DNA of 63,164 nt, counting the filler, from Klebsormidium nitens (taxonomy: Eukaryota > Plantae > Klebsormidiophyceae), in the NCBI GenBank assembly GCA_000708835.1. It is 7 parts of 7 records of this genome, joined end to end, with 100 filler letters (N's around TTAATTAATTAA, not from the genome) between each part and the next. Parts side by side here need not be neighbours in the genome. Positions count along the whole stretch, not along the records: positions 14,720 to 37,873 come from DF237651.1; 6 more parts are not named here. One strand, 5' to 3'. A program made the position numbers and the translations under genes. This document shows positions 2,201-36,248 of this stretch, piece after piece. The notes under the pieces were generated by a model, which searched no databases, was not told where the DNA came from, and saw nothing but the letters and a program-made list of their open reading frames with translations. The stretch's first letter is position 1. Each line of letters begins with the position of its first letter.

Positions 2201-3448
2201 AGAATTCAACCTATCATATGCAGATTGACTGGCCTCCATCTCGTGTACAGCTCATTTCAAGCCTGAAACGCGCCCAGTGCGGCATGGCTTCAGTGGATGC
2301 GAAGACGTGTCGACGACTTTTGATGCATTGGCTTGACTTGCCATATGAGACTGTCAGTACGTCAAAAAGTTACTCACTCAAGAGCACGTCAACCTACTCT
2401 ATTGGAGTTTTCCACAACACCACAACATCTGAGCACCCGCAAGAGACCTGAATCAGAGAAATGGCAAGCTGCATACACATACACACCTTAGATTGCACAC
2501 CAGGAGCTACTGGAGCTGGGACGGGCTGCGGCGCGACCAGCTCCCTAGTCGTTTTCTTTCAGGCTTGCTCCCACTCCCATCGGAAAGGCGCTCAGGCCCC
2601 GGCAATTCTGCCCTGCAGTGACACACTATCACACTGGTTGTACTGCATGGGGTTTGAAGGTGGCCCAGCGTCCATAGCGTATGGTTATCGGGCCAAACCG
2701 GGCACTTTCCGTTCGGTTCAGCTAAATCCTAGATCGACGGCGCCCGGATGAACCCGGCCCATCGGACGGCTGAGAAAGTTGGGGGGAATTGGAGACTCGC
2801 GCCGCCCCGTATGAACGCGGGCCCGGCCGGCGGCCGGCCGGCTTCCAGCGCGTGACAAACCCTCGCAGATTTATCGTACGGTCAGGATTGACTGGTCAGA
2901 GCCGGTTATGCAGCGCATGGACGGTTACAGATGGACCACTGGATAACCTCGACTTTGAAGCTGGAGTCAACGTGGGTTCCACTCAACCGCAAGCTACGGT
3001 AGCTGCTACCCTGTGGACTCTGGTTAAGCATATTCCTCTATCCGAACTTGCTCGATGGCAAACTCAATGCTATTGGAATGAGGCAAACAACCTTCCATCT
3101 GCCGCAGAGGACTGTGGTAAAGAGGAAGGAAGAAGGAAGAAAGAAGGAGGTGGTTGACCTTGAAGTTCCTCCAGTTCCGCGATTGACCGACTTTCTTGGG
3201 CTACAGAGAGGCGCCCGTGGTTAGACCAGGTTAGCGCAGGACAACGACCAGGAAGCAGGTTCAAAAGTGAACTCGAGCCCCAGCTGCATTGGAAGGGTGG
3301 ACGTTACTGTCCAGTGTCAGCCAGTGTTTGGGGAGGTATCCATCTGTTTGTTGTGAGTCAGGTTGTACGCAGGGGCAAGTAAATCTTGCATCGCATTCTT
3401 ATCGGCATTTTCTTGTTGACTCGAGGTTCTGCGTCTGCTAGTGCCTCA

Positions 3449-6383
3449 ATGGCTGCTCCAGTGGATGAGCACCTTGCTCTCAAGGTGCAGGACATTCCCC
3501 CTGCCCCGCCATTCCAGAATCTGGCAGGTAAGGGACATGTTTTCTTTACTATATTGGTTGAAAGCTGGTGGTGCTCTTCTAGGATTTGCATGCAAACAGG
3601 ATGAGCAGAGGCAATGCAATGACTCATGAAAGTACTGCTTTGAGTGTGAAGAGACCTGGGTGCAACATGTCAGTCCTATTCTGATGGCCCTAAGCACACT
3701 TTACTCTAGCTGTTTGAGTAGGGGGAGGCGGAAGAGACGGCAGTAGTGTCGGGCCTTTGTGAAGAACAGGCGTACTTTATTCGTGCATTAGCAACTAGAA
3801 ACGGCAGCTTGTACTGAAGGGTTAGTAGGTAGGTAGTGGGGTCTACCTGATACCTTGTCTTAATCACATACTTTAGTAAGGAGTTTTAGCTATGTGCCAG
3901 AGTTGCATGACTGTCACGAGGCACGGCCTTGTTGCAGGCTCCTGACACAAAAACTTGCGCAAGAGTACTCTTTTCCCCTGCAGTCATCCCAGAAGCGGGC
4001 ATGCTTGAGAAGAGGCCGCACTGGGGGGCCTGCAATAAGAACCATGCTCTCAGGTCAGGTGCACCGTACGCGGTTGATGGATGCACAGAGTTCCTGCCCC
4101 TGTCTTTGGACCCTTCTGCTCCAGAGCACCTGGTGTGTGCTGCCTGCGGTGAGTGCTCTTACTGCTTGAGTGGCCCACCCAGGGGTCTCTTTACCCATCA
4201 TCTTGGTTGGGGCCAAAGAGCAACTGCTGACAACTTCCTAAGCCAGGTCAGCACATCCTTTTGGCCACGAAGGCAAGACACAGTGACAATCTCTGTTTGA
4301 TGTGCGCTGTGGACCTTTAATTATTCGTTCTGGACATTGTGAACTCGATGTCCACTGTGCTCTCAAATTAGATTGGATTTGTAAGTCAAGGAGAGGATTT
4401 TCCGACAACGACAGATTCAAGCTTGATACCACAGCTTTGCCACCTCATCCTGTGGTGGTTTGTTGCAACGTGGACGCAGACCCATCCAAAAGTGCCTCAG
4501 GGTTGATTCGATATATGATCTGTCTTGCTTCTGCTGCTGCCTGAGCTTGTTGGTGTTACACTGCGCTTATCTTTTTCCTGCAAAACCGGTTGAACAGATT
4601 TGCTCAATGAGACCTCTCTGTCCACAAAGTTATGCATGGCGGACCATATCACTACCTGGATGTTCTGAAGTAATAGCAGCTTTGCAGCTCTGTTTGACTT
4701 TTGGGATGTTTGGAGCTACCTCCTGGAAACCTCTACTCTCCAGAATGCAACTGTGTCTTTGCTTCTTCTTGTAAGATGCTGCTTTTAACATATTAATATC
4801 TCCTCTTGTAGGGTGCCACCGAAATTTCCATCTCAAAGATGGACAGAGGCCGATCCTCTATGCCACCATTGCGCCAAAAGCGGTGAGTTGCCATCTTCAT
4901 GAATGCAGAATCACTCCCAGCATCTTCAAAGCTTCATCAGAAAAGGTCCTGAATGGAAGTTGGCAGGCTCTTAGTGGATCAATATACCAAAGATGGATTG
5001 GCCAGTAGGTTGCAAAATGCACAAGGTTGTTGTAAAGGCATTGTACGGTTTTCGACGTCCTCTATTTCTGCATCTTTGGCGAATCCATCCAATTGTCATC
5101 TTATTGTCTGATTGGCAATCTAAGATGCAAGCTCCATCTACACTGCTAATTACAACATTTCTCAGGGCTTCAAGAAGGGCAAGGGGGCTGGGGGAGCAGG
5201 CGCTGCGCCGTTTGACTCAGTCGCAGGGCAGAAGCGGAAGAGGAGTCAGTTCACGCCAGAGCAGGTAAAAATGGCAACTTATGTAGGCTCTTACGGCTTG
5301 CCTAATAGCAGAGGACTTCATTTCAGAGTGGCTCCAGAGGGTTGTGAAACGCAGGATTGTTGTTCCGTCAGACCGCCTTTTCATTCTACCAAGCTTTTAG
5401 GCCTGATCTTTTCGTACAAGGTTGATTCTGTCTAGACAAACTTTTTGGAAAGGGCAGTCCGGGCTTACATATGAGAAGGCCTCCGCTCGTGCTTGACACA
5501 AGGTCGTTCCCATTGGGTTCTCAACAAGTCAGTTGCTGCAAACTGAACAATATGTACTAAAACGCACCAGGAAAGGCAAATCAGAATGGCCGGGTCTTCA
5601 ATCACAGAGCCAAAGACAGTTGGCCCGGTTTTCTCAGCAGCCCGGACGTGTGCCTCCATGGATGGAAGGATAGGTGTGTATGCCACTGCAATATCAAAAG
5701 AGTACCATGAGTGAGGTTGCTTTTGATGTTTGAGAATCGAAGATAACCTGTAGTTCTCTTTCGATCGCACTGTGCTCAGCCAAAGGTGGATCGGGTATTC
5801 AAAGGGTCTGTGTCGAAAACGGACTCAACGTCCCTGTGGTGTGCAGCGGGATGCCATGCTTCGATTTGCGGAGAGCATCAACTGGACCACGACGAAGCAG
5901 GACAAGTCGGTCATCCAGCAGTTCTGCAGCCAGATTGGCATCGACAAGAGCAATTTCACGCACTTCCTGCACAACATGTAAGTTCGCGCTCCATTGCTCA
6001 GGGCATGAAGTGCTTTTTAGTATATGCTCGCAAAGCCAAGTGTTAGCTTGTATCCTTCCATACTTTGTGTGTGACTGGTGGGGAGTGCCGCTGTACACCG
6101 ACCCTGATGGTAACTAGAATCCTGTTGTGAGTCCTAGAGATGTGAATCGTCTGAGAATTTTGTTAAGTTCCCTTGAGGCTTGGCGCAGTCCCCTTCAGTG
6201 CTAGAGAGGTGAATTATTCGAGAGCTTGGCGCAGTTCAGGCTTGTCCAGGAGTTTGCAATCAGGTCTAGCTATGTTCCAAGGCATGAACGGGAAGTTTGA
6301 GTTTCTGCAGAAAGAAGAAGAGGTCAAAGCAAGCGCAACCACAACAGGCGGCGGGTCAAGTACCATATGCGACAGGTCCGTAA
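3449..6383 (+). CDS. ZHD: ZF-HD (zinc finger-homeodomain) transcription factor, 6 exons, ~205 aa
   Basis: Exons read by eye, all GT-AG with consistent phases (618 nt total): 3449-3527, 3984-4148, 4812-4882, 5166-5264, 5847-5977, 6311-6383. The product has the ZF-HD dimerisation finger (CNKNHA...AVDGCTEF...LVCAACGCHRNFH) and the ZF-HD homeodomain (KRKRSQFTPEQRDAMLRFAESINW...IQQFCSQIG...FLHN). Confidence 0.9.
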
Positions 6384-23247: not shown

Positions 23248-24537
23248 CTAAGTCTCTCCTACTCCTGAATTGTTCAGCCTAGGAGCATTCTGTACACCAT
23301 GTATACGAAGCGCAGCCTCGTCGTATGCTCGACCCGCTTCCTCGGCTGTCTCGAATGTTCCGAGATGCACCTTCATGCCTTGGTCTCTGATTTGGGCCAC
23401 CCACTTGTCTCCAACCTTCGAGCATCCGACTATTTCTGTGTCTCTCTCCTTCCTCTTCTTGTTCACCTGAGGGCCTGTCGACTGCGAATTCGTCGATCTG
23501 GGCGCGTAGCACAAGTTCTCAGCGCGGTTATCCTCGTTCTTCCAGTTCTTGTGATGTATGATCATGCCACTGTTCTCAGCTTCGTCCACCTCTTCCACTG
23601 TCTTCTTCTTCCTCATCACGTAGTCGCTCAGGTTCTGCTTCGTGCTGTTGAAATATACGTTTCCCCCGCGGGCACTGTTCGCGCTGAGTCCGGTCGCTTT
23701 GCCATCATCGTTGACCATCAGTTCCACGAATACGTCATCGTCTACCAGCACATCGATTGTCTGCTCGCGGGTGACTTTCGCCTTCAACACCGCTGCTCCC
23801 ATCTCGTTCCGCGAGATCACGAGGTTCTCTCTCTGAGTCCTGACGTACTCTGCCAGGGCTTTCTCGCACGCCTCCTCGGCCTCCGAGAAGGTTTCGTAGG
23901 TACCCTTGGCTAGAACCTGACCGTTCCTCTTCATATTGTGAATGAAGAACTTCTTCCCACTCGGCTTGATCGGGAATCGCTGCTGCTTTTTGATGCCCGA
24001 TTTTGCATCGATGTCTGCGAAACCCTCCGGCTCCTCGACGCCATTCAAGTGCGCCTGGTCTCCATATGCTCTCTTGCAGAGGTCGTACTTGTAGGCGGCC
24101 ATGGCTTCTTCTGGATAGTAACCCAAGACCTCGCCGTTCAAAGTCGCGCGCCATCTCCTCTCTGGCTTACCCTCCTTCATCTCGAAGACGCCCAGGTATG
24201 CAGAGGTTCCAGAAGCCTCCTTTTTCTTCATCGCGTGTGCAGCTGCAGGCGTGCAGATCTTCAAGTTCGATTTCGTGAGGTTGAGGTGATCGCCATCTAC
24301 GAAGGTTACCACGTCCGACCCCTTTGGCTGCTGTCCGATTACCATGTGACTCAATCTGGTGAAAGGGTCTTCCAGGGTCTTGGACTTGACCACATACTTG
24401 GAGCTCTTGTTTCCTTCTGTGGCATACCTCCAGCAGAAGGGCCTGACGCGGTCCTCGTCCTCCTTGTCCACGATTGCGTAGACAGACTCTTTACCATCCT
24501 TGACCTCGATGAGCGCCGTAGATGAGGAGCTTGCCAT
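23248..24537 (-). CDS. HNH endonuclease with AP2 DNA-binding domains
   Basis: HNH-like segments [16 protein letters not shown] and [16 protein letters not shown]; AP2 domains ([24 protein letters not shown]; [32 protein letters not shown]). Confidence 0.85.
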
Positions 24538-24763: not shown

Positions 24764-25627
24764 TTGCACCCGTCCGAAATCAGGCAGGTAAAGATCATGA
24801 TGAATACTTGTCAAGCTACGATCGCGCAAAACGAACGCGCGGGGCAGCGTTGTAGGACTAAGGCATCCTGTGGAAAGTATTGCGGGAAGCACTTCAAGTT
24901 ACACAGCCAGCTTGACATCATCAAGGAACGGGGACAGACCCCGTGCAACAACATACGCAGAAAGTTCAACAAAGGCTGTCAACTCGTAGTGCCTCCCGGG
25001 TCGAGGCGTTCGTATTGCAAGACATGTTGCGACGACGTTCGGGCGAAAGATCAGATGAGAGAACAGAAGAAACGCGCAACTTCCCCCGGCGAAGCACTGC
25101 AAGAAGGCCTCTTGAGATGCAATAACGCCCGTTGCTTGAAGCTTTATCCAGTGGACAAGTTCGTTGTTCGGGATGGGACGGGCTGGTGCGAAGATTGTCG
25201 CATTCACAGGCAGGCCCAATACAAGGAGATGATCGAGGCCAACATCAACTTTCGTCTCAGTCGAGCCCTTCGCTCGTACGTGAAGACGACATTCAAGAGA
25301 GTCCCCGGTGTGAAGAAGTCCAGCAAAGGAGAGGAACTCCTCGGATGCACTCACGCTTTCGCAAAGGCCTGGATAGAGAACCAATGGGAAGAAGGGATGA
25401 ACTGGACCAATTACGGAACGACGGACGGTTGGTGCATTGATCACATCAGACCAGTCGCCTCCTTCGACCTGAGCGACGATGAGCAACAGAAGCAGTGTCT
25501 CCACTACACGAACATGCAACCGCTGTGGGCGAAAGAGAATAGGGAGAAACACGATCAGGTAGATTGGGAGGGTGCACAGCATCAAGCTCAGCAACGGGTG
25601 AAGTTCTTCGCATCGCAGGTCTCATAA
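24764..25627 (+). CDS. HNH endonuclease (phycodnavirus/phage type) with N-terminal Cys-rich fingers
   Basis: WCIDHIRPVASFDL...CLHYTNMQPLWAKENREK is a typical HNH core. The likely start is the MMNTC ATG near 24797. Confidence 0.8.
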   Translation: MHPSEIRQVKIMMNTCQATIAQNERAGQRCRTKASCGKYCGKHFKLHSQLDIIKERGQTPCNNIRRKFNKGCQLVVPPGSRRSYCKTCCDDVRAKDQMREQKKRATSPGEALQEGLLRCNNARCLKLYPVDKFVVRDGTGWCEDCRIHRQAQYKEMIEANINFRLSRALRSYVKTTFKRVPGVKKSSKGEELLGCTHAFAKAWIENQWEEGMNWTNYGTTDGWCIDHIRPVASFDLSDDEQQKQCLHYTNMQPLWAKENREKHDQVDWEGAQHQAQQRVKFFASQVS

Positions 25628-25718
25628 ATGAGTCACTGGCATGACTCAGATCTGAAACGGTGAATATTGTTTTTATTCAGCACGCAGTGCCCGTGCTGAG
25701 ATTTCGATGGATAACGAC

Positions 25719-27833
25719 TTAATTGGAGTAGGCGAGACCAGCCATTCCCGTTTCCGCCGCGGAGTGTTCCTCCGCGGACCGATCGTCCCTTGCGCTCGCT
25801 CCGGCTGACTAGGCCCTCACTGCGAACGGGTGGCTTTGCGACCTGTGACGTTGATCGTACCGCAGCTTCGTCGTAGCGCTTCGGTCGACCTAACAAGCGG
25901 ATCACCCATCGTCGAGACTCTCGCTCGCGCATCCGACGAACTTTTCCCATACCCAAGTGGTTGTCTTGGCCACGGTCCTCTCGCGAGGAGCCGCTTGGGG
26001 TCGTCGGCGTCAGGGCTTCCCTGCTACCAGCACACCTTGCAAACATATATTCACTAGCACATGGCCATCGGTCGGCTGTATAACCGGCGGGGGCAAAACG
26101 GCTTTTTCGCAGATAAGAGCCCGAATTATCTGCGCCGTGTGCTTTTTCGAGCAGCATTTTACTCATGATCCTCAAAATGTTAAAGTTAATGGCAATAATC
26201 TTGCACCTTGCGGCCACCATATTCGGCGGGAAGGTGAGATATAGGGTGGAATTATCGATGCGAGAGAAATTAGTTGATCCACTTGGTTGATGAGATGACG
26301 CCTCCAGCGAAAATGAGTACACGTAGACGTGCTTCTTGGGCACGCGAGGATGGTGCTGATATGGCTGCACCAACCTGTGATATGTGCCGGGCCTCTCGCT
26401 GTACCTGTCGTGCCCGTTCAGCATCAGCTTCGCACTCTGCACGTAGTCCACGCCTGCGACCTCGCCGAAATCGAAGATCATATTTCCGGTCTTGGAGTTG
26501 ACGGCTGCGGAGCTCTCTGGGGTCACTACCCAGATCAGCTCCTTCACGGGGTGGTTGAATGACAGCCGGATCTTCTGAGTGCTGGCCGAGATGCTGGCAG
26601 GGATCGATTCGTCACCCGTGAATTGTACCTGCTCCACGAGGAATTCGTGGGACGAGGAAGCGAACTTTCGGCGCTCATCCGTATCCAAATAGATATAATC
26701 GACGTAAAGAGAGCAATCGATCAGAGAAAGGGGTGCACCGTTGGAGGTAGGGGTCACCACGTTGATATCTGACCTGACCAGGGCTGCTGCCGGAGCCAGT
26801 TCTACATTAAGCTTAATTTCATGGTATTGCAGCGCGATAAGCGGAAGAGCGTTGCCAGGGAGCTTGTTGAACCAGAACTTGAGGGGGATATAATACGTGC
26901 GCTGGCCGGTCTGCGTATGGAGCTGCCCGCCCTCGTAGTTGTCCGCCTCGTTGTACTTGCCGATCATCTCCCGCAGTCCACCCTCCTTCTCGGCGGGGAC
27001 CGTGAGCTCGTCGTCGATCTCGTAGTAGGCATCAAAGTGCTTGTCGATGCGCTGACCGCCGATCTCGATTTCCACCGATTTAAGGAGGGCGTGGCCGACC
27101 GCATTTACGTACCTGACATAAGTGGAAGTGGAGCCTCCTACCGTGACCGTCTGATCCAGTGCAGGAAGCGTGACTTGCAACCACATATTCGTAATCAAAT
27201 CTCCATTTCGGCTGATATTGAACGTGGATTTACGATTTAAATCGCACGTGCCGTTTGATGTCTGCGCGATGGATTCCATAGCAAAGTTGGTATGCCTCCG
27301 GTAGACCAACCTGAAGAAAGTGATCTGAGGTGTCCCGGTAAGGTAGGCATCCTGAGCTCCGATAGCGACCAAAGAAAGCACTTCTATACAGCCCAGAGCA
27401 TTTCGCTGAGGGACGGACTATACCTTAAGGGTTCAATGCCGGTGGCTACCCGACTCCCCCCCAACTCCTCCTAGTCTCTGAACCGTCTTCCTCGCCCTGG
27501 CCGGAACGGGCGTAGGAAGCTTGGCTGCAGATCACCCAATCTCGAGCTGTTTTACCGTACGCGAGGCGATTAACCTGCTGCCTGCGGTCCGATCTCTCGG
27601 ACGAGGTGGTCGCGTCGAGCTTCAGGATGTCCCCGCAATTCGAAGTTGTCGCGGGATCCGGACGAGGGCCGTGTGCCCCCTAATCGATTTCCCACTAGCC
27701 AGTTTTATCGACGCGCTCGGACGGAGAGCGCGCCCCACGAGACTTACACCGTTTGCCCTCGAGAGTGGTCCGTGGAACTCGACCGAGGCGGCTGACTGTT
27801 GAGGACTGCTTAATTCGTTAATCCTCCTGACAT
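25719..27833 (-). CDS. mcp: NCLDV major capsid protein, 3 exons separated by two group I introns, 420 aa
   Basis: Exons 27833-27821 (ATGTCAGGAGGAT), 27380-26161 and 25748-25719 total 1263 nt (420 aa + stop). The protein starts [37 protein letters not shown] and ends QPSGSTNFSRID...NFNILRIMSGMAGLAYSN*, matching both canonical NCLDV MCP termini. Confidence 0.95.
25749..26160 (-). ncRNA. Group I intron (412 nt, no ORF of its own) before the last 9 codons of the MCP CDS
   Basis: The 5' exon ends ...AUGAGU and pairs with IGS GCUC (U-G); the intron ends ...CGGAAACG. R-like UCACAGGUCG and S-like AAGGGACGAUCG form P7 C(A)GGUCG/CGAUCG. P3 GGUGUGC/GCCACC; P9 hairpin CCGCGGAG-GAACA-CUCCGCGG. Removal restores ILRIMS|GMAGLAYSN*. 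Confidence 0.88.
27381..27820 (-). ncRNA. Group I intron (IC1-like, 440 nt, no ORF) after nt 13 of the MCP CDS
   Basis: The 5' exon ends in U and the intron ends in G. IGS AAGCAGUCCUC pairs with the 5' exon GAGGAU (U-G at the splice site) and with the 3' exon UGCUU (P10). P AAUUGCGGGGA, Q GAUCUGCAGCC, R UUCAGAGACUA, S AAGGUAUAGUCC; P3 CAACUUC/GGAGUUG. Confidence 0.92.
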
Positions 27834-30623: not shown

Positions 30624-31733
30624 ATGGAGCCCACTGGCGCGAAGCGAAAGCGACAGACGTACGAGCCACCCACCGAGCTGGGTCGGTACCTCCACCATCC
30701 CGTCCAAAAGGAGTACGTGGGCTACCCTGACGGAAGCATCTGGTCGAAGAAGAGTGGCGCTTTCATTCAGGGGAGCTTGAACGGCGAATACGTGCTGATA
30801 AATCTTGGGGACAAAAACGTTTACAGGCATAGATTCATCTTCGAGATCGCCAATCAACGAGTTATTCAACCCCTAATGCACGTCGACCATATCAACGCAG
30901 ACAAGACTGACAACTCTTGGACCAACCTTCAGGAATTGACGAGCCAGGCACACGCGATGAAAACATCTGCGGATAATCCCAAGCGTGGTGCGAAGTGTGG
31001 AGTGACTTTGGGCCAAAAACTTGTCGCCACACACATTGGCACTGGAGAAAAACTAAGTTTCAATTCCCAATGGCATGCAGCGAGGGAGCTGGGTCTTCAC
31101 CAAAGCAACATCGGCAAACAACTGCGAGGCAAGTTGAAACGAGTGGGGCAGTATACTTTCGAGGTGGCTTCTGCATACATGGATCAGCAGCGGGACCTTC
31201 CGGGGGAGCAGTGGGAGGACGTGCCGAAGGACCTCGCAGTCGAGTACGGCTTCCAGCCCGGCATCATGAAGGGGATCCGCATAAGCAATCTCGGACGCAT
31301 TCAAGACAAGATGGGGAGACGCACCTTTGGATTGGAGGTACCCTCGAAATTCCCTGGCGACTGCTACATGAGCACCTTCGTTGGTGGGCAAAAAAGACGC
31401 GTGACAGTCCACGTCCACGTCCACGTCCTATGTGCCTTGACTTTCGTCGGACGGCGTCCGAGTCCCACTCACACTGTTGATCACATCGACGGACGCAAGA
31501 AGAACAATGCCGCCTCCAATCTGAGGTGGTATACGCCGAACGAACAAGGACAGAATCAGAGGTCGAATCGGGCAGTGCACCAGCTGGACTCAGAGACTGG
31601 ACGCGTGCTTCGGACGTTCGCCACGATAGCAGAGGCCGCCCGAATCACAAAGTGCCCGAAAGCGGGTATAAATATGGTATGCTTGGGCACGAGGGCAAGA
31701 TCGGGCGGCTTTTCTTGGAAGTACGCGACTTAG
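30624..31733 (+). CDS. HNH homing endonuclease with two HNH_3 cores and NUMOD-type domains
   Basis: HVDHINADKTDNSWTNLQ and TVDHIDGRKKNNAASNLRW; NUMOD1-like C-terminus (AVHQLDSETGRVLRTFATIAEAARIT...GGFSWKY). Confidence 0.85.
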   Translation: MEPTGAKRKRQTYEPPTELGRYLHHPVQKEYVGYPDGSIWSKKSGAFIQGSLNGEYVLINLGDKNVYRHRFIFEIANQRVIQPLMHVDHINADKTDNSWTNLQELTSQAHAMKTSADNPKRGAKCGVTLGQKLVATHIGTGEKLSFNSQWHAARELGLHQSNIGKQLRGKLKRVGQYTFEVASAYMDQQRDLPGEQWEDVPKDLAVEYGFQPGIMKGIRISNLGRIQDKMGRRTFGLEVPSKFPGDCYMSTFVGGQKRRVTVHVHVHVLCALTFVGRRPSPTHTVDHIDGRKKNNAASNLRWYTPNEQGQNQRSNRAVHQLDSETGRVLRTFATIAEAARITKCPKAGINMVCLGTRARSGGFSWKYAT

Positions 31734-31773
31734 GGCAGCACAGTTATTCGTCAGGAACAGTAACGTCGTAGAT

Positions 31774-32496
31774 ATGACAGGGTCGTCGGTGCAAGGTCAG
31801 GGTATCATCAGCTGCAACATCGCGAGCGGCGAGAAGAAGAGATTTGCTTCTCAGTCTCAGGCAGCAAAGGAGTTGGGGTTATTTCAGAGCAATATCTCCC
31901 TGTGCTTGAAAGGGAAACTCGCAAGTACAGAAGGGTATACTTTTGAGAAGGATGCAGATTATGAAAATGACCAGGCAGACCTGCCTGGAGAGGAGTGGAG
32001 GAAGATACCGGAAGACGTAGGGATAGCTCAGGGCTTCTCGTCCAAGATGCTGGCCGGCATGCAATTCAGCAGCGCGGGGCGGGTGCGAGACAAGCGCGGG
32101 CGCAGGACCTTCGGCACCGACCTGGGTTCGCACAAGGTGGTGAAGGTGGCCGACGGGCCCCTGAGCAAGAAAGCACGCGTCCACGTCCTCTGCACACTAG
32201 CATTCCACGGCCCTCCCCCCGGCAAGGATCACATAGTCCAGCACATCAACGGCGAGAACAGCGACAATAGCCGGGAGAACCTGACCTGGGTCCACAAGAC
32301 TGCACCAAGCGATAGGCGTGGGACGGTCAAGGCGGTGCAGAAGATAGATCGTGAGAGCGGGGCCGTCCTGGCGACCTATCAGAGCATCATGGAGGCAGCA
32401 GAAGCGAATAATATAGCCCACAGGAATCAGATTTCGGACGTCATTGCAGGCAGGAAGGCCACAGCAGGTGGCTACGGCTGGCAGTTTGCAGATTGA
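31774..32496 (+). CDS. HNH endonuclease, tandem paralog of the C-terminal two-thirds of 30624-31733
   Basis: FASQSQAAKELGL, DLPGEEWRKIP, VHVLCTLAFHGPPP..HIVQHINGENSDNSRENLTW, NUMOD1-like tail. Confidence 0.8.
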   Translation: MTGSSVQGQGIISCNIASGEKKRFASQSQAAKELGLFQSNISLCLKGKLASTEGYTFEKDADYENDQADLPGEEWRKIPEDVGIAQGFSSKMLAGMQFSSAGRVRDKRGRRTFGTDLGSHKVVKVADGPLSKKARVHVLCTLAFHGPPPGKDHIVQHINGENSDNSRENLTWVHKTAPSDRRGTVKAVQKIDRESGAVLATYQSIMEAAEANNIAHRNQISDVIAGRKATAGGYGWQFAD

Positions 32497-33304: not shown

Positions 33305-33470
33305 TTACCATTTTCGCCCAAACTGTCGCCCGTACCGGGCGCTTATTCGGACGGAAAATGAATAATAATACCGGATTAGGTCCATACGAGTACGGACTGG
33401 TACCGGCTATCCGCGAACCGCCGGGTTATAGGTTCGAAAGCCTCCGGTATCCGCGAATAATCCTCAAACT
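33305..33470 (-). ncRNA. Putative Fanzor omegaRNA scaffold (guide expected in the flanking MTase sequence)
   Basis: ~165 nt between the Fanzor stop and the transposon end, with several stem-loops (GTCCGTAC-TC-GTATGGAC; TACCGG/CCGGTA) and a TTCGCGGATA-(G)CCGG direct repeat. The position matches TnpB/Fanzor guide-RNA loci. Boundaries are inferred. Confidence 0.6.
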
Positions 33471-35298
33471 AGCGGCAGAACTCAGCCGGCCGAACTCTTC
33501 CTCCCAGCCTGCTCTGGAGCAGCCTCAAGATGTTCCGGGCGGCGTTCACGTCGCGGTTCACCGTCATGCCATAACAGCCACTGTTTCTGCAGTGGAGCAC
33601 ACTGTGAACTTTTACGGTCTTCACCACCCCATCCTTGCACCGCTTCTCCGAGTACTGGTTGTGCAGCTGCGTCTTGCAGTCGAAGTGGAGCTTGCTCGTC
33701 CTAAATTCGTCTACCGAGACCACCCTGCAGTGCTTGCGGAGCTCCCGCTCCAGCCGCTTCACGGGCCCAGAGGGTGATCCTCTTATAATCCCGGCAGCGT
33801 CCTTGTTGGACCAGTCTCCGAACCCCACGACTGTCCTCTTGCCCATGCGCTTGGTGATACCCTTGCAGATCTCGTGCAACTTCTTCTGTGCATAGATGTA
33901 CCGCTTGGACTTGAGACCCCTGAACCCCTTCCTCATGTGGAAGCTCAGGAGCATATCCAGGCGGGGAAGCATGAAGCGCACGTAGTCTAGCAGCTTGGAG
34001 CTCTCAGGCGTTTTCTTGCTGGGCATGTTGCGGATCGCTTCGAGGACCTCAGGACTCTGCTCGTACCAGTGCCTGATCCTTGCGTTGCTGAGCTTGTACT
34101 TGGCATCGTGGTAGAATTCTCGCGTCGAGCAAGACAACTTCTCGCCTTGCTCGTTCATCATGACGAACAAATCCCGCCTCCTCCCCGGGTCAAGGCCCCA
34201 CAGCTCCTCGTCACCGGTGAGATCAGGAAGCACCCCCTCTCCAGCGGAAGACCTTGGTTTGGGCTTCCTCAACACCATGCACACGGCCTTTCCATCCGTG
34301 AGGATCTCACCCGCAAACTTTCTGTTGCACGTCTCAAACTTCTCGAGGTTGAACAGCTGTCTCCAGTAGTCGTCTGCCACCTTCCTGAACTCCGGTCCAA
34401 ATGCTGGCAGCTTGGCGCCTCCTCTCTTCAACAAGCCATATAGGCCATTCGTGCACATCTTTAGGTGACTGCACTCGAAGCCGCTCTTGGTGGGAAGGAG
34501 GCTAAAGAGTCTCAGCTGCTTGCCCTTCTTCAACTCAGCTTCCGACAGAGGATGGTGCGACTCCATGTAGCGCAGGAACATGAATTGCATGGGCATGAGA
34601 AGGTGAGGGGTGGAGTCTGCTCGTCCGGTCGTGGCTTTTGGAAGCATTGCACGGTACTCCAGGACCAACGGGTCATCACCGTTGTACTCCTCTGTCAGCA
34701 TGTGTCTCATCTTTGCATAGCATGCTGAGCCATCGAGCGAGTACTTGTGCTTTAGATATCGCTTGAAGCGCCGGTAGAAGTTCGTAGCAACAGAGTTTCG
34801 GGTGCAAGTCGCCATCTGGAGGCTTGCATTCTGGTACCAGCCGGAGGCGAGGTTCTTGCTGTCCGGTGGCACATACTCAGCGGGGCGTGATGATACATAG
34901 AGTTCCACCGTCTCCCTGAAGAAGAGGTCTTTGATTGCGCTCTTCTGCCTCCCGGTGACACTGACGGCTGACAAGCATCCATAGAAGAAGGACTGATCGA
35001 GAGGTGGTACTTCTCTATCGAGCTCACACATGCGCAATACATGCAGGTTGGCGAGAAGGTAGGCCTCGCAGATGGCCTTGTTCACTTCCTTGAGCACACT
35101 CTCGAGAGGGAGGGCCTTCGCAGCCTCCTTGCAGAAGCTGTTCCAGCTGGTCTTTACGACTGTACACTCGGTCTCCCTGTTCCTCTGAGCACGGAGTTTG
35201 ACATCTTCGCGAGTTCGAGTGGGGTCCCTGAAGAGCTTGCATATGTAGCGCAGACATTCGTGCTCGAGAGCGATGTCTGGGGGCTTCTTAGGCGGCAT
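33469..35298 (-). CDS. Fanzor: Fanzor1 (eukaryotic TnpB-like RNA-guided RuvC nuclease), 609 aa, intact
   Basis: ATG at 35298 (MPPKKPP...). RuvC-I LWGLDPGRR, Fanzor1-type VVGFGDWS, shifted catalytic Glu in VVSVDEFRTSK, Zn finger (HFDC...LHCRNSGC), RuvC-III NRDVNAARNI. Confidence 0.92.
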   Translation of the reverse strand: MPPKKPPDIALEHECLRYICKLFRDPTRTREDVKLRAQRNRETECTVVKTSWNSFCKEAAKALPLESVLKEVNKAICEAYLLANLHVLRMCELDREVPPLDQSFFYGCLSAVSVTGRQKSAIKDLFFRETVELYVSSRPAEYVPPDSKNLASGWYQNASLQMATCTRNSVATNFYRRFKRYLKHKYSLDGSACYAKMRHMLTEEYNGDDPLVLEYRAMLPKATTGRADSTPHLLMPMQFMFLRYMESHHPLSEAELKKGKQLRLFSLLPTKSGFECSHLKMCTNGLYGLLKRGGAKLPAFGPEFRKVADDYWRQLFNLEKFETCNRKFAGEILTDGKAVCMVLRKPKPRSSAGEGVLPDLTGDEELWGLDPGRRRDLFVMMNEQGEKLSCSTREFYHDAKYKLSNARIRHWYEQSPEVLEAIRNMPSKKTPESSKLLDYVRFMLPRLDMLLSFHMRKGFRGLKSKRYIYAQKKLHEICKGITKRMGKRTVVGFGDWSNKDAAGIIRGSPSGPVKRLERELRKHCRVVSVDEFRTSKLHFDCKTQLHNQYSEKRCKDGVVKTVKVHSVLHCRNSGCYGMTVNRDVNAARNILRLLQSRLGGRVRPAEFCR

Positions 35299-35345
35299 GA
35301 ACGCCACCTTATAGACTACTTTTAAGAAAAAAAGTCTCGGAGATT

Positions 35346-36248
35346 TTACGCGCCTGGGCCTAGGACTCTCTGGAACAGTCTGGAGCACACGGCGGGGGTG
35401 AGCTTCTGCAAGCCATCCTCTAGAGCGGCCCTGAGGTCTGCCTCGTTCCTGGGCGCTACCCCACTGATGTGAGTCCTGAGGATATTGAAGCAGAGCTCTA
35501 CCGGGTTGAGATGTGGTGCATAGGGAGGCAGGTACTCCAGGTCGATTGCAAGTTCGCCTGCCGCTTCTGCAATCGTAGGCAGCCCTCTGCGCTTGAGAGC
35601 GTTGGTGCTCTTGTGGATGGCAGCGTTGTCCAGGACGATCTTGGAGCCCATAGGCAGCTCTTGTAGGAACCTCAGAAACCTGACAGCGTCCACAGAGCCC
35701 TGGTAAAGGTTCCACTTGACCACCCCAGTGGAGCTGATGCAGAGGAGGAGTGAGAACTTCTTGCCCCTAGGGCCAGGTCTCCTTACCACTGCTCTGGACC
35801 CACGCTGGCTCCATGCATAGCCGCGGATATGATTCATGAAGAAGCCACACTCGTCCAGAGAGAGGACATGCGGTCCCAGATCAGCTTGGATGTCATTCAG
35901 GAAAGCCTGACCCCTAGCCTCGTTGAACTCGCAGTAGGCCTTGGTTGCTTTCTTGAAGGAGAGAGTGGAAACTGCAACTCGCACATTGTGTTCGTCTCTC
36001 AGGAACTGTGCAGCTTGCTCGAGTGTGGTGGTTGGATTCTGCTGCATCTATGCTGCCAGGCTGATCATTACCAGTGGAGAGAGCTTTCGGAGGTGCGCAG
36101 TGTTGCGCTCCCGGTCTTGCAGTCTAGGGCTTCTGATCCACCTCTGGATGGTGCGCTTGGACCTCTGCAGAGATTGGCCTATAGCATCATCATCCATGCC
36201 AGACGCCAACATCTGCCTGAGGAAGGCACGCTTCTCGCTCATCTTCAT
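35346..36248 (-). pseudogene. IS630/Tc1-like DDE transposase with an in-frame TAG at 36048-36050
   Basis: HTH N-terminus (MKMSEKRAFLRQ...IGQSLQRSKRTIQRW), then VLSLDECGF, IVLDNAAIHK, YLPPYAPHLNPVE. It reads LAA*MQQ where the second copy reads LATYMQQ. Confidence 0.88.

Follow-up and report, generated by a model that had tools for sequence, protein, structure and literature searches.

A compact group I intron with a variant P7 near the 3' end of a giant-virus capsid gene in a Klebsormidium nitens assembly

Introduction

Introns have been described in several groups of large DNA viruses and their relatives. Faustovirus carries 12-18 of them in its gene for the major capsid protein (MCP) (PMC7290515, PMC6247863), self-splicing introns have been published for chloroviruses (PMC7019647), and introns have also been published for polinton-like viruses (PMC12220804). 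The chemistry of group I introns is well established, with a guanosine attacking at P1 and the exons then being ligated at the terminal G of the intron (PMC3679873). A C.A pair is the second most reactive pair at the splice site, and it gave accurate splicing in an engineered Tetrahymena construct (PMC11417360). The guanosine pocket of the Tetrahymena intron has been described as four base triples, A263-C262-G312, G-G264-C311, A261-A265-U310, and A306-C266-G309 (PMC10020454), and variants of the guanosine site are known among the IC1 introns of myxomycetes (PMC8395846). The diagnostic features of subgroups IC1 and IE used below were taken from PMC3699495.

Results

The window analysed here is a 63,164-nt stretch of a K. 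nitens assembly (GCA_000708835.1), and positions are counted along it. It resembles a eukaryotic scaffold, with a UPRTase fragment, retroelement-like ORFs, and N gaps, and at about 17.6-41 kb it holds a block of giant-virus genes (SNF2 helicase, SET, HNH/AP2, Bro-N, and DNA methylase). The flanking retroelements and assembly gaps suggest that this block is an endogenous virus of the alga, and the host genome of the capsid gene is likely algal. A TnpB-like ORF (33469-36047, minus strand) with a Cas12f1-like_TNB match below cut-off also lies within the viral block and adjoins a DDE_3 transposase; it looks like a Fanzor-type element. Three more free-standing HNH nuclease genes, one with AP2 and two with NUMOD, are found near the capsid gene at 23248-24537 and 30624-32496.

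The MCP gene encodes an NCLDV major capsid protein in three exons on the minus strand (27833-27821, 27380-26161, and 25748-25719; 420 codons by length). The first exon reads ATG TCA GGA GGA T, the main exon carries Capsid_N and Capsid_NCLDV domains whose best solved relatives are the capsid proteins of chlorovirus PBCV-1, and the last exon encodes GMAGLAYSN and the stop codon. Intron 1 (27381-27820, minus strand) is a 440-nt IC1-type group I intron with J3/4 AAU and P7 G(A)GACUA/UAGUCC. A contig of run X7, aligned at window position 27375, passes from MSGGLL straight into the main exon; it represents an allele without intron 1 and confirms that junction. Intron 2 (25749-26160, minus strand) is a 412-nt ORF-less insert at ILRIMS|G. 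The upstream exon ends in ATC ATG AGT at 26161 (INFNILRIMS), and the tail GMAGLAYSN* follows in another frame, exactly at the coordinates given in the first-pass annotation.

That annotation had read the insert as a second group I intron unrelated to intron 1, and both points are borne out, by structure and covariation in the one case and by the lack of any BLAST similarity between the two introns in the other. The insert starts after U and ends in G. Our model, all on the minus strand, contains P1, P10, P2, P2.1, P3, P4, P5abc, P6, P6a, P7, P8, P9.0, and P9, which takes in the helices that had been proposed. P1 (26148-26165) joins exon UGAGU (26165-26161) to the guide GCUCG (26152-26148) in 5 bp with U.G placed at the 5' splice site; P10 forms 4 of 5 bp. 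P2 (26093-26142) is a long stem with an A-rich internal bulge, followed by P2.1 (26038-26059; GCUAGU...GCAA), a weak stem that accepts 3-nt insertions in relatives. The 5' strand of P3, GGUG(U)GCU, and J3/4 GGU lie at 26026-26036, with the P3 partner AGCCACC at 25835-25829; the 5' strand of P4, AGC(A)GG (26020-26025), pairs with CCGCU at 25900-25896. The 5' strand of P5 and P5abc (25908-26016) include P5a, a GNRA-capped P5b, P5c, the A-rich bulge, and an extra hairpin of ~22-25 nt at the J5a/5 hinge. P6 (UGUU/AACG), P6a, and J6/7 UCA occupy 25846-25895. The 5' strand of P7, C(A)GGUCG (25839-25845), supplies the equivalents of C262, bulged A263, and G264. P8 (CGUUCGC/GCGAGCG) lies at 25793-25828, J8/7 CAAGGGA and the P7 3' strand CGAUCG at 25780-25792 (the latter at 25785-25780), and P9.0 (GU/AC), the P9 hairpin, and the terminal G at 25749-25779, without P9.1. 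The intron thus has a terminal G with P9.0, a bulged P7 with the G264-C311 site, and the P3-P7-P8 and P4-P5-P6 domains in correct order, with covariation.

Rfam does not recognise this intron. A search of the window against Rfam gave no match at gathering score, and the group I model RF00028 gave none to intron 2 at E<=10; the same model finds window intron 1 at 36.1 bits and recognises two introns of another giant virus, introduced below as B and C, at 30.1 and 47.2 bits, under its 50-bit threshold. As modelled, the core of intron 2 is nonetheless complete for a group I intron, although Rfam misses it. The core exceeds chance by a generic, sequence-agnostic group I core descriptor that two controls pass, window intron 1 (IC1) and the IE intron of the viral contig L105. 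It matches 272 of 168,056 dinucleotide shuffles, and 39 of 168,056 once P9.0 is required; a looser descriptor matches 5,068 of 150,176 (3.4%). The folding energy itself is unremarkable (z -1.64, mildly stable only). The minimum free energy fold lacks P4 and P7 and differs from the group I model, at -160 kcal/mol free vs -135 to -147 kcal/mol constrained. The P7 motif GGUCG/CGAUC also occurs in P6a of this copy, so a swapped misfold is possible; the repeat is absent from the relatives of intron 2.

P7 itself forms as the first-pass annotation had drawn it, C(A)GGUCG/CGAUCG, a compensated variant with five Watson-Crick pairs and one G.U. Its description as changed around the G-binding site holds for the lower layers of the site (G265.U310 and U266-A309), whereas C262-G312, bulged A263, and G264-C311 are the unchanged residues of the Tetrahymena type. 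The changes are confined to the third and fourth triple layers and the two distal pairs, and they are likely tolerated. Intron B has GAUCG/CGAUC at this place and intron C the ordinary GACUG/CAGUC, so the swap is drift within one lineage, for which GACUG to GAUCG to GGUCG would be the simplest order. The U266/C267 swap also occurs in two GISSD IB4 introns (GAUCA); because of this, and because the P7 of C is ordinary, no subgroup can be defined by P7 alone. In the literature covered, neither this P7 nor the lineage is described; Li and Zhang 2005 or the GISSD P7 table could already list this P7.

Introns B and C belong to the capsid gene of another giant virus (L022:2482-4988, plus strand). Three group I introns interrupt that gene: A follows YGA, B follows YRRH, and C lies in the tail. 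Its capsid is 54% identical (185/345) to that of the window, and as the four IMG/VR contigs L021-L024 are identical over 3001-4700, they were counted as one virus. Intron C (L022:4536-4972, plus strand) interrupts the Leu codon of GMGGL; it starts by re-encoding L-S-Y-A-N-stop, with the true last exon, A-Y-S-N-stop, lying 3' of it. A covariance model built from the 3' 162 nt of intron 2 scores B at 73.1 bits and C at 61.5 bits, against 13.8-19.5 bits for IC1-type introns and 6.3 bits for the IE intron of L105, a spread to be read in light of the fact that a single-sequence model favours close kin. It also aligns window intron 1 in the correct P6/P7/P8 register. Identity to intron 2 is 52% for B and 49% for C, which occupy other sites of the capsid gene. 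In a plain MAFFT alignment, 61 of 62 cells of helices P3, P5a, P5c, P7, and P8 are paired, as are all 29 double changes, for five helices chosen after an earlier alignment in which MAFFT misregistered P2, P4, P5, and P9 and showed broken pairs there. Slid-register controls for the same five pair only 22-31 of 60-62 cells and 6-12 of 15-25 double changes. J3/4 reads GGU in intron 2, GGA in B, and UGU in C.

Further members of the lineage were sought with the same model, which gave no match in two giant-virus records and nothing in 94 of 98 loci; three weak matches (E 0.07-0.42) were set aside. DNA patterns of the P7 core gave chance matches only (6 in viral contigs, 27 in JGI metagenomes, and 0 and 5 in prokaryote genomes), the GAUCG variant of the pattern had 0 matches in viral contigs, and a phage BLAST returned one 31-nt chance match. 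As the P7 patterns fixed C262 and intron B has G262, they could not have found B, and their emptiness says little about the range of the lineage.

At the insertion site of intron 2, RxxS-G is continuous and free of any insert in 125 of 125 tail motifs from 71 viral MCP loci. Protein P0002, identical to the main exon at 367 of 407 positions (90%), reads RIMS-GMAGLA and is an empty allele. The insert is present in frame in P0003 and P0004 (98-99% identical) and in P0001 (64%), so close relatives are polymorphic at this site. Precise removal of intron 2 restores the host gene at the level of DNA and protein. Giant-virus MCP genes were also scanned for breaks at ILRIMS|G, as the first-pass annotation had proposed, with 0 and 3 matches and no intron.

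Intron 2 is present in contigs of runs X5, X6, X8, and X10. Among 21 listed substitutions from close-strain contigs, 1 breaks a pair in the final model where 5.8 would be expected (P 0.004), a value that rests on a model with two helix registers adjusted after seeing the variants; a stricter count gives 3 pair breaks against 5.4 expected (P 0.14). None of these substitutions falls within P3, P6, P7, or P9, and one change in X10 disrupts the first pair of P4 unless the partner base, which is unseen, changed too. In an allele shared by X5 and X8, the exon ends in AGC and the guide is ACUCA, which places C.A at the 5' splice site; X8 carries the U.G allele as well. A 59-nt contig of X8 (depth 2) at window position 25785 runs from the P7 3' strand across a shared GATC into sequence resembling 26478 onward, and is either a deleted copy or a chimera.

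The intron of P0001 was read back through its codons from the protein sequence. Where both sides of a pair changed, pairing stays possible in 5 of 5 cases (against a random rate of 0.50, and with 1.8 such cases expected, P 0.025). Pairing is likewise possible for 12 of 15 one-sided changes, and core positions changed at 3 of 58 compared with 47 of 216 elsewhere (Fisher P 0.0035). This reading implies A265-U310 and also G264.U311, so that at least the P0001 copy looks decayed. Its last exon appears one codon short, and of the 48 single-letter changes that are forced, 10 are of CpG type. The sequence suggests that P0001 is a decaying endogenous copy.

The junction of ILRIMS with GMAGLAYSN across intron 2 was absent from the contigs of six runs, one of them RNA. 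In run X13, a soil metatranscriptome (RNA), a 239-nt contig lies inside the intron only (window 25830-26043); it may stem from excised intron RNA or from DNA carry-over. Eight runs under the same species label, guessed to be RNA, had next to no shared words, which is no proof of silence.

A 582-aa ORF does exist in the DNA; it opens with a GTG, the G being the final base of intron 1, and continues 175 codons past RIMS. We agree with the first-pass annotation that this is a spurious read-through, an artefact of the open frame. Protein searches with the read-through gave nothing beyond P0001 and the cluster of P0002; four other matches cover only short multi-hit stretches, and a search with the P0001 read-through found no locus.

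A free-standing endonuclease VII-like ORF (24797-25627, plus strand) is convergent with the capsid gene, its stop lying 122 nt from the 3' splice site, and is a candidate mobiliser of the intron. It matches the PHROG endonuclease VII at E 7e-11, as well as unnamed viral clusters; its single-sequence fold was unusable (pLDDT 38.5). Homing in trans via this neighbour is a candidate route by which the intron may have spread between viruses, and we see the odds as evenly balanced. X5 keeps intron 2 while most of the endonuclease region is replaced (465 other letters for 911), and a homologue lies near an intron-less MCP in L057.

We also compared intron 2 with the diagnostic features of the described subgroups. 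It has the extended P5 (P5abc with A-rich bulge) and the bulged A in P7 of IC1 introns, together with J3/4 GGU rather than AAU and a P6 in which UG is paired to CG rather than GC to GU. Its J3/4 starts with GG, as in IE. At 265-310, it has G.U (A-U in relatives) rather than C265-G310, its P5 insert exceeds 100 nt, and only 31 nt follow P7, without P9.1, compared with 103 nt in L105, so that the P9/P13 expansion of IE is absent. Over 61 core positions, intron 2 agrees with the IE intron at 29 and with intron 1 at 24, and the IE intron agrees with intron 1 at 23. The L105 intron (L105:623-958, plus strand) is a textbook example of IE, located within a protein gene of a 481-kb viral contig, and Rfam misses it too. 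An IE identity was dropped on the mismatches at 265-310, P5, and P9/P13, the 6.3 bits of L105, and the difference from all 23 IE2 rows seen. An ID identity was dropped as well: the ID core motifs (P7 GACUG/CAGUC, GAAAACGG, and a short P5) are lacking in intron 2, and all 13 of the 17 GISSD ID rows compared (PMC6125680 supplement) differ from it.

Discussion

We conclude, with a probability of roughly 85%, that intron 2 is an ORF-less group I intron of a lineage also present in another giant virus's capsid gene, and that its predicted two-step, guanosine-initiated self-excision would rejoin ILRIMS to GMAGLAYSN. Free guanosine would bind at G264-C311 in P7 and attack P1 at its U.G (or C.A) site, after which the terminal G, kept in place by P9.0 and P10, would take the place of the free guanosine for exon ligation. 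Since intron 2 does not re-encode the tail, splicing would be needed for the normal C-terminus, and unspliced RNA would yield a 175-residue junk tail. The copy in the window has probably been endogenised, and it may now be silent.

One alternative differs in classification and not in mechanism. Intron 2 may be an ordinary member of a described subgroup, most likely IC1, with its variation covered by the literature, and we would put this at an even chance. Its P5abc with the A-rich bulge, J5/4, and J6/7 match those of window intron 1, P7 is ordinary in its relative C, the MCP gene of a punuivirus has an annotated IC1 intron (PMC13692296), and variation at the guanosine site of IC1 introns is already known (PMC8395846). 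Against this, J3/4 GGU and the U.G/G-C start of P6 do not fit the IC1 criteria (PMC3699495), and IC1-type introns fall well short of the lineage members under the intron 2 model, with the leaning towards close kin noted above. We class intron 2 as group I, within a giant-virus lineage related to IC1, and not as IC1, IE, or ID. The first-pass suggestion of a divergent subgroup is left possible, if unproven, by this mixed IC1/IE feature set, but it can no longer rest on P7. Its fullest form, which we consider rather unlikely, would be an undescribed subgroup of group I ribozymes, spread among giant-virus capsid genes, that combines an IC1 scaffold with an IE-like J3/4-P6 triple helix, whose alleles switch A265-U310 to G.U, C266-G309 to U-A, and the splice-site U.G to C.A while still splicing, and which the endonuclease VII-type neighbour mobilises in trans.

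It is improbable, in our view, that intron 2 is group I by descent but that this copy is dead or dependent on host factors, with G265.U310 and the duplicated P6a/P7 motif as signs of decay. The G.U does replace the A-U of P0001, B, and C, the surroundings point to an endogenous element, and divergent-core myxomycete introns need host factors (PMC8395846). However, the G265 allele is common to X5, X6, X8, P0003, and P0004, the gene has kept its capsid exons and its two introns intact, with CpG o/e of 1.06-1.31, and X5 is unchanged over 25735-25921, yet has 16 listed changes in 25598-25734. Translation of the insert as a 175-residue capsid C-terminal extension, with incidental RNA structure, is already largely refuted and hardly credible: an uninterrupted frame is found in the window, P0001, P0003, and P0004, and all observed indels come in multiples of three, but the X6 allele has a stop at read-through codon 80, the indels of intron 2 cluster at one loop, the substitutions track base pairs and are unlike protein drift (R to C, W, and Q), the read-through has no Pfam family and only P0001 matches it full-length among 1.84 billion representatives, the canonical MCP tail is preserved out of frame, and L022 carries homologous RNA at two other sites.

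Introns like intron 2 escape RF00028, and as a result gene callers add false tails of 120-175 residues to capsid proteins (P0001, P0003, and P0004), and endogenous giant viruses may have their capsid genes wrongly taken as broken. A single lineage here offers a natural series at the guanosine pocket (GACUG/CAGUC, GAUCG/CGAUC, and GGUCG/CGAUC) and U.G versus C.A at the splice site, so the tolerance of the four-layer triple sandwich can be tested with natural sequences. Should the GISSD models reject the lineage, one subgroup would be added to the 14 described there.

Comparison with known systems

Among described subgroups, IC1 introns (the Tetrahymena type, the punuivirus MCP intron, and window intron 1) share with intron 2 P2.1, P5abc and its A-rich bulge, J6/7 UCA, C262-G312 with bulged A263, G264-C311, P9.0, and a viral capsid host gene. 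In contrast to them, intron 2 has J3/4 GGU, a P6 starting U.G, G-C, changed P7 layers at 265-268, and an extra hinge hairpin, lacks P9.1 and P13, and is missed by RF00028. IE introns (GISSD IE2, PMC6125680 supplement, and L105) share GCUAGU...GCAA before P3, a bulged 7-bp P3 ending in U-A, J3/4 GGU, G216, and the distal P7 pairs C267-G308 and G268-C307, but their GUA.AC.GC(A/G)CG (all 23 rows seen), short P5, and long P9 with P13 set them apart. Among mitochondrial introns, ID shares P7 GACUG/CAGUC with relative C, and two IB4 rows show the U266/C267 swap (GISSD alignments, PMC6125680 supplement; PMC7595605); unlike intron 2, the ID introns have a short P5 and, in most rows, GAAAACGG at J3/4-P4, and GAUCG or GGUCG occurs in P7 of 0 of the 13 ID rows seen.

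Two group I introns in one capsid gene had been called unusual, which does not hold in view of the 12-18 introns of the Faustovirus MCP gene and the three in L022. Like the window gene, the MCP genes of Faustovirus and Kaumoebavirus (PMC6247863, PMC7290515) have several group I introns that were gained or lost between strains. Those introns are large and some carry their own GIY-YIG nuclease, whereas intron 2 is compact and ORF-less; the comparison covers gene and intron architecture.

The pairing of an ORF-less intron with a free-standing nuclease bearing an endonuclease VII-type motif resembles the psbA intron of cyanophage S-PM2, which reportedly undergoes collaborative homing with F-CphI. 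Homing of that pair was shown in phages, whereas intron 2 and its neighbour are known here from sequence, with cleavage and co-transfer hypothetical, and X5 has the intron with the nuclease region largely replaced.
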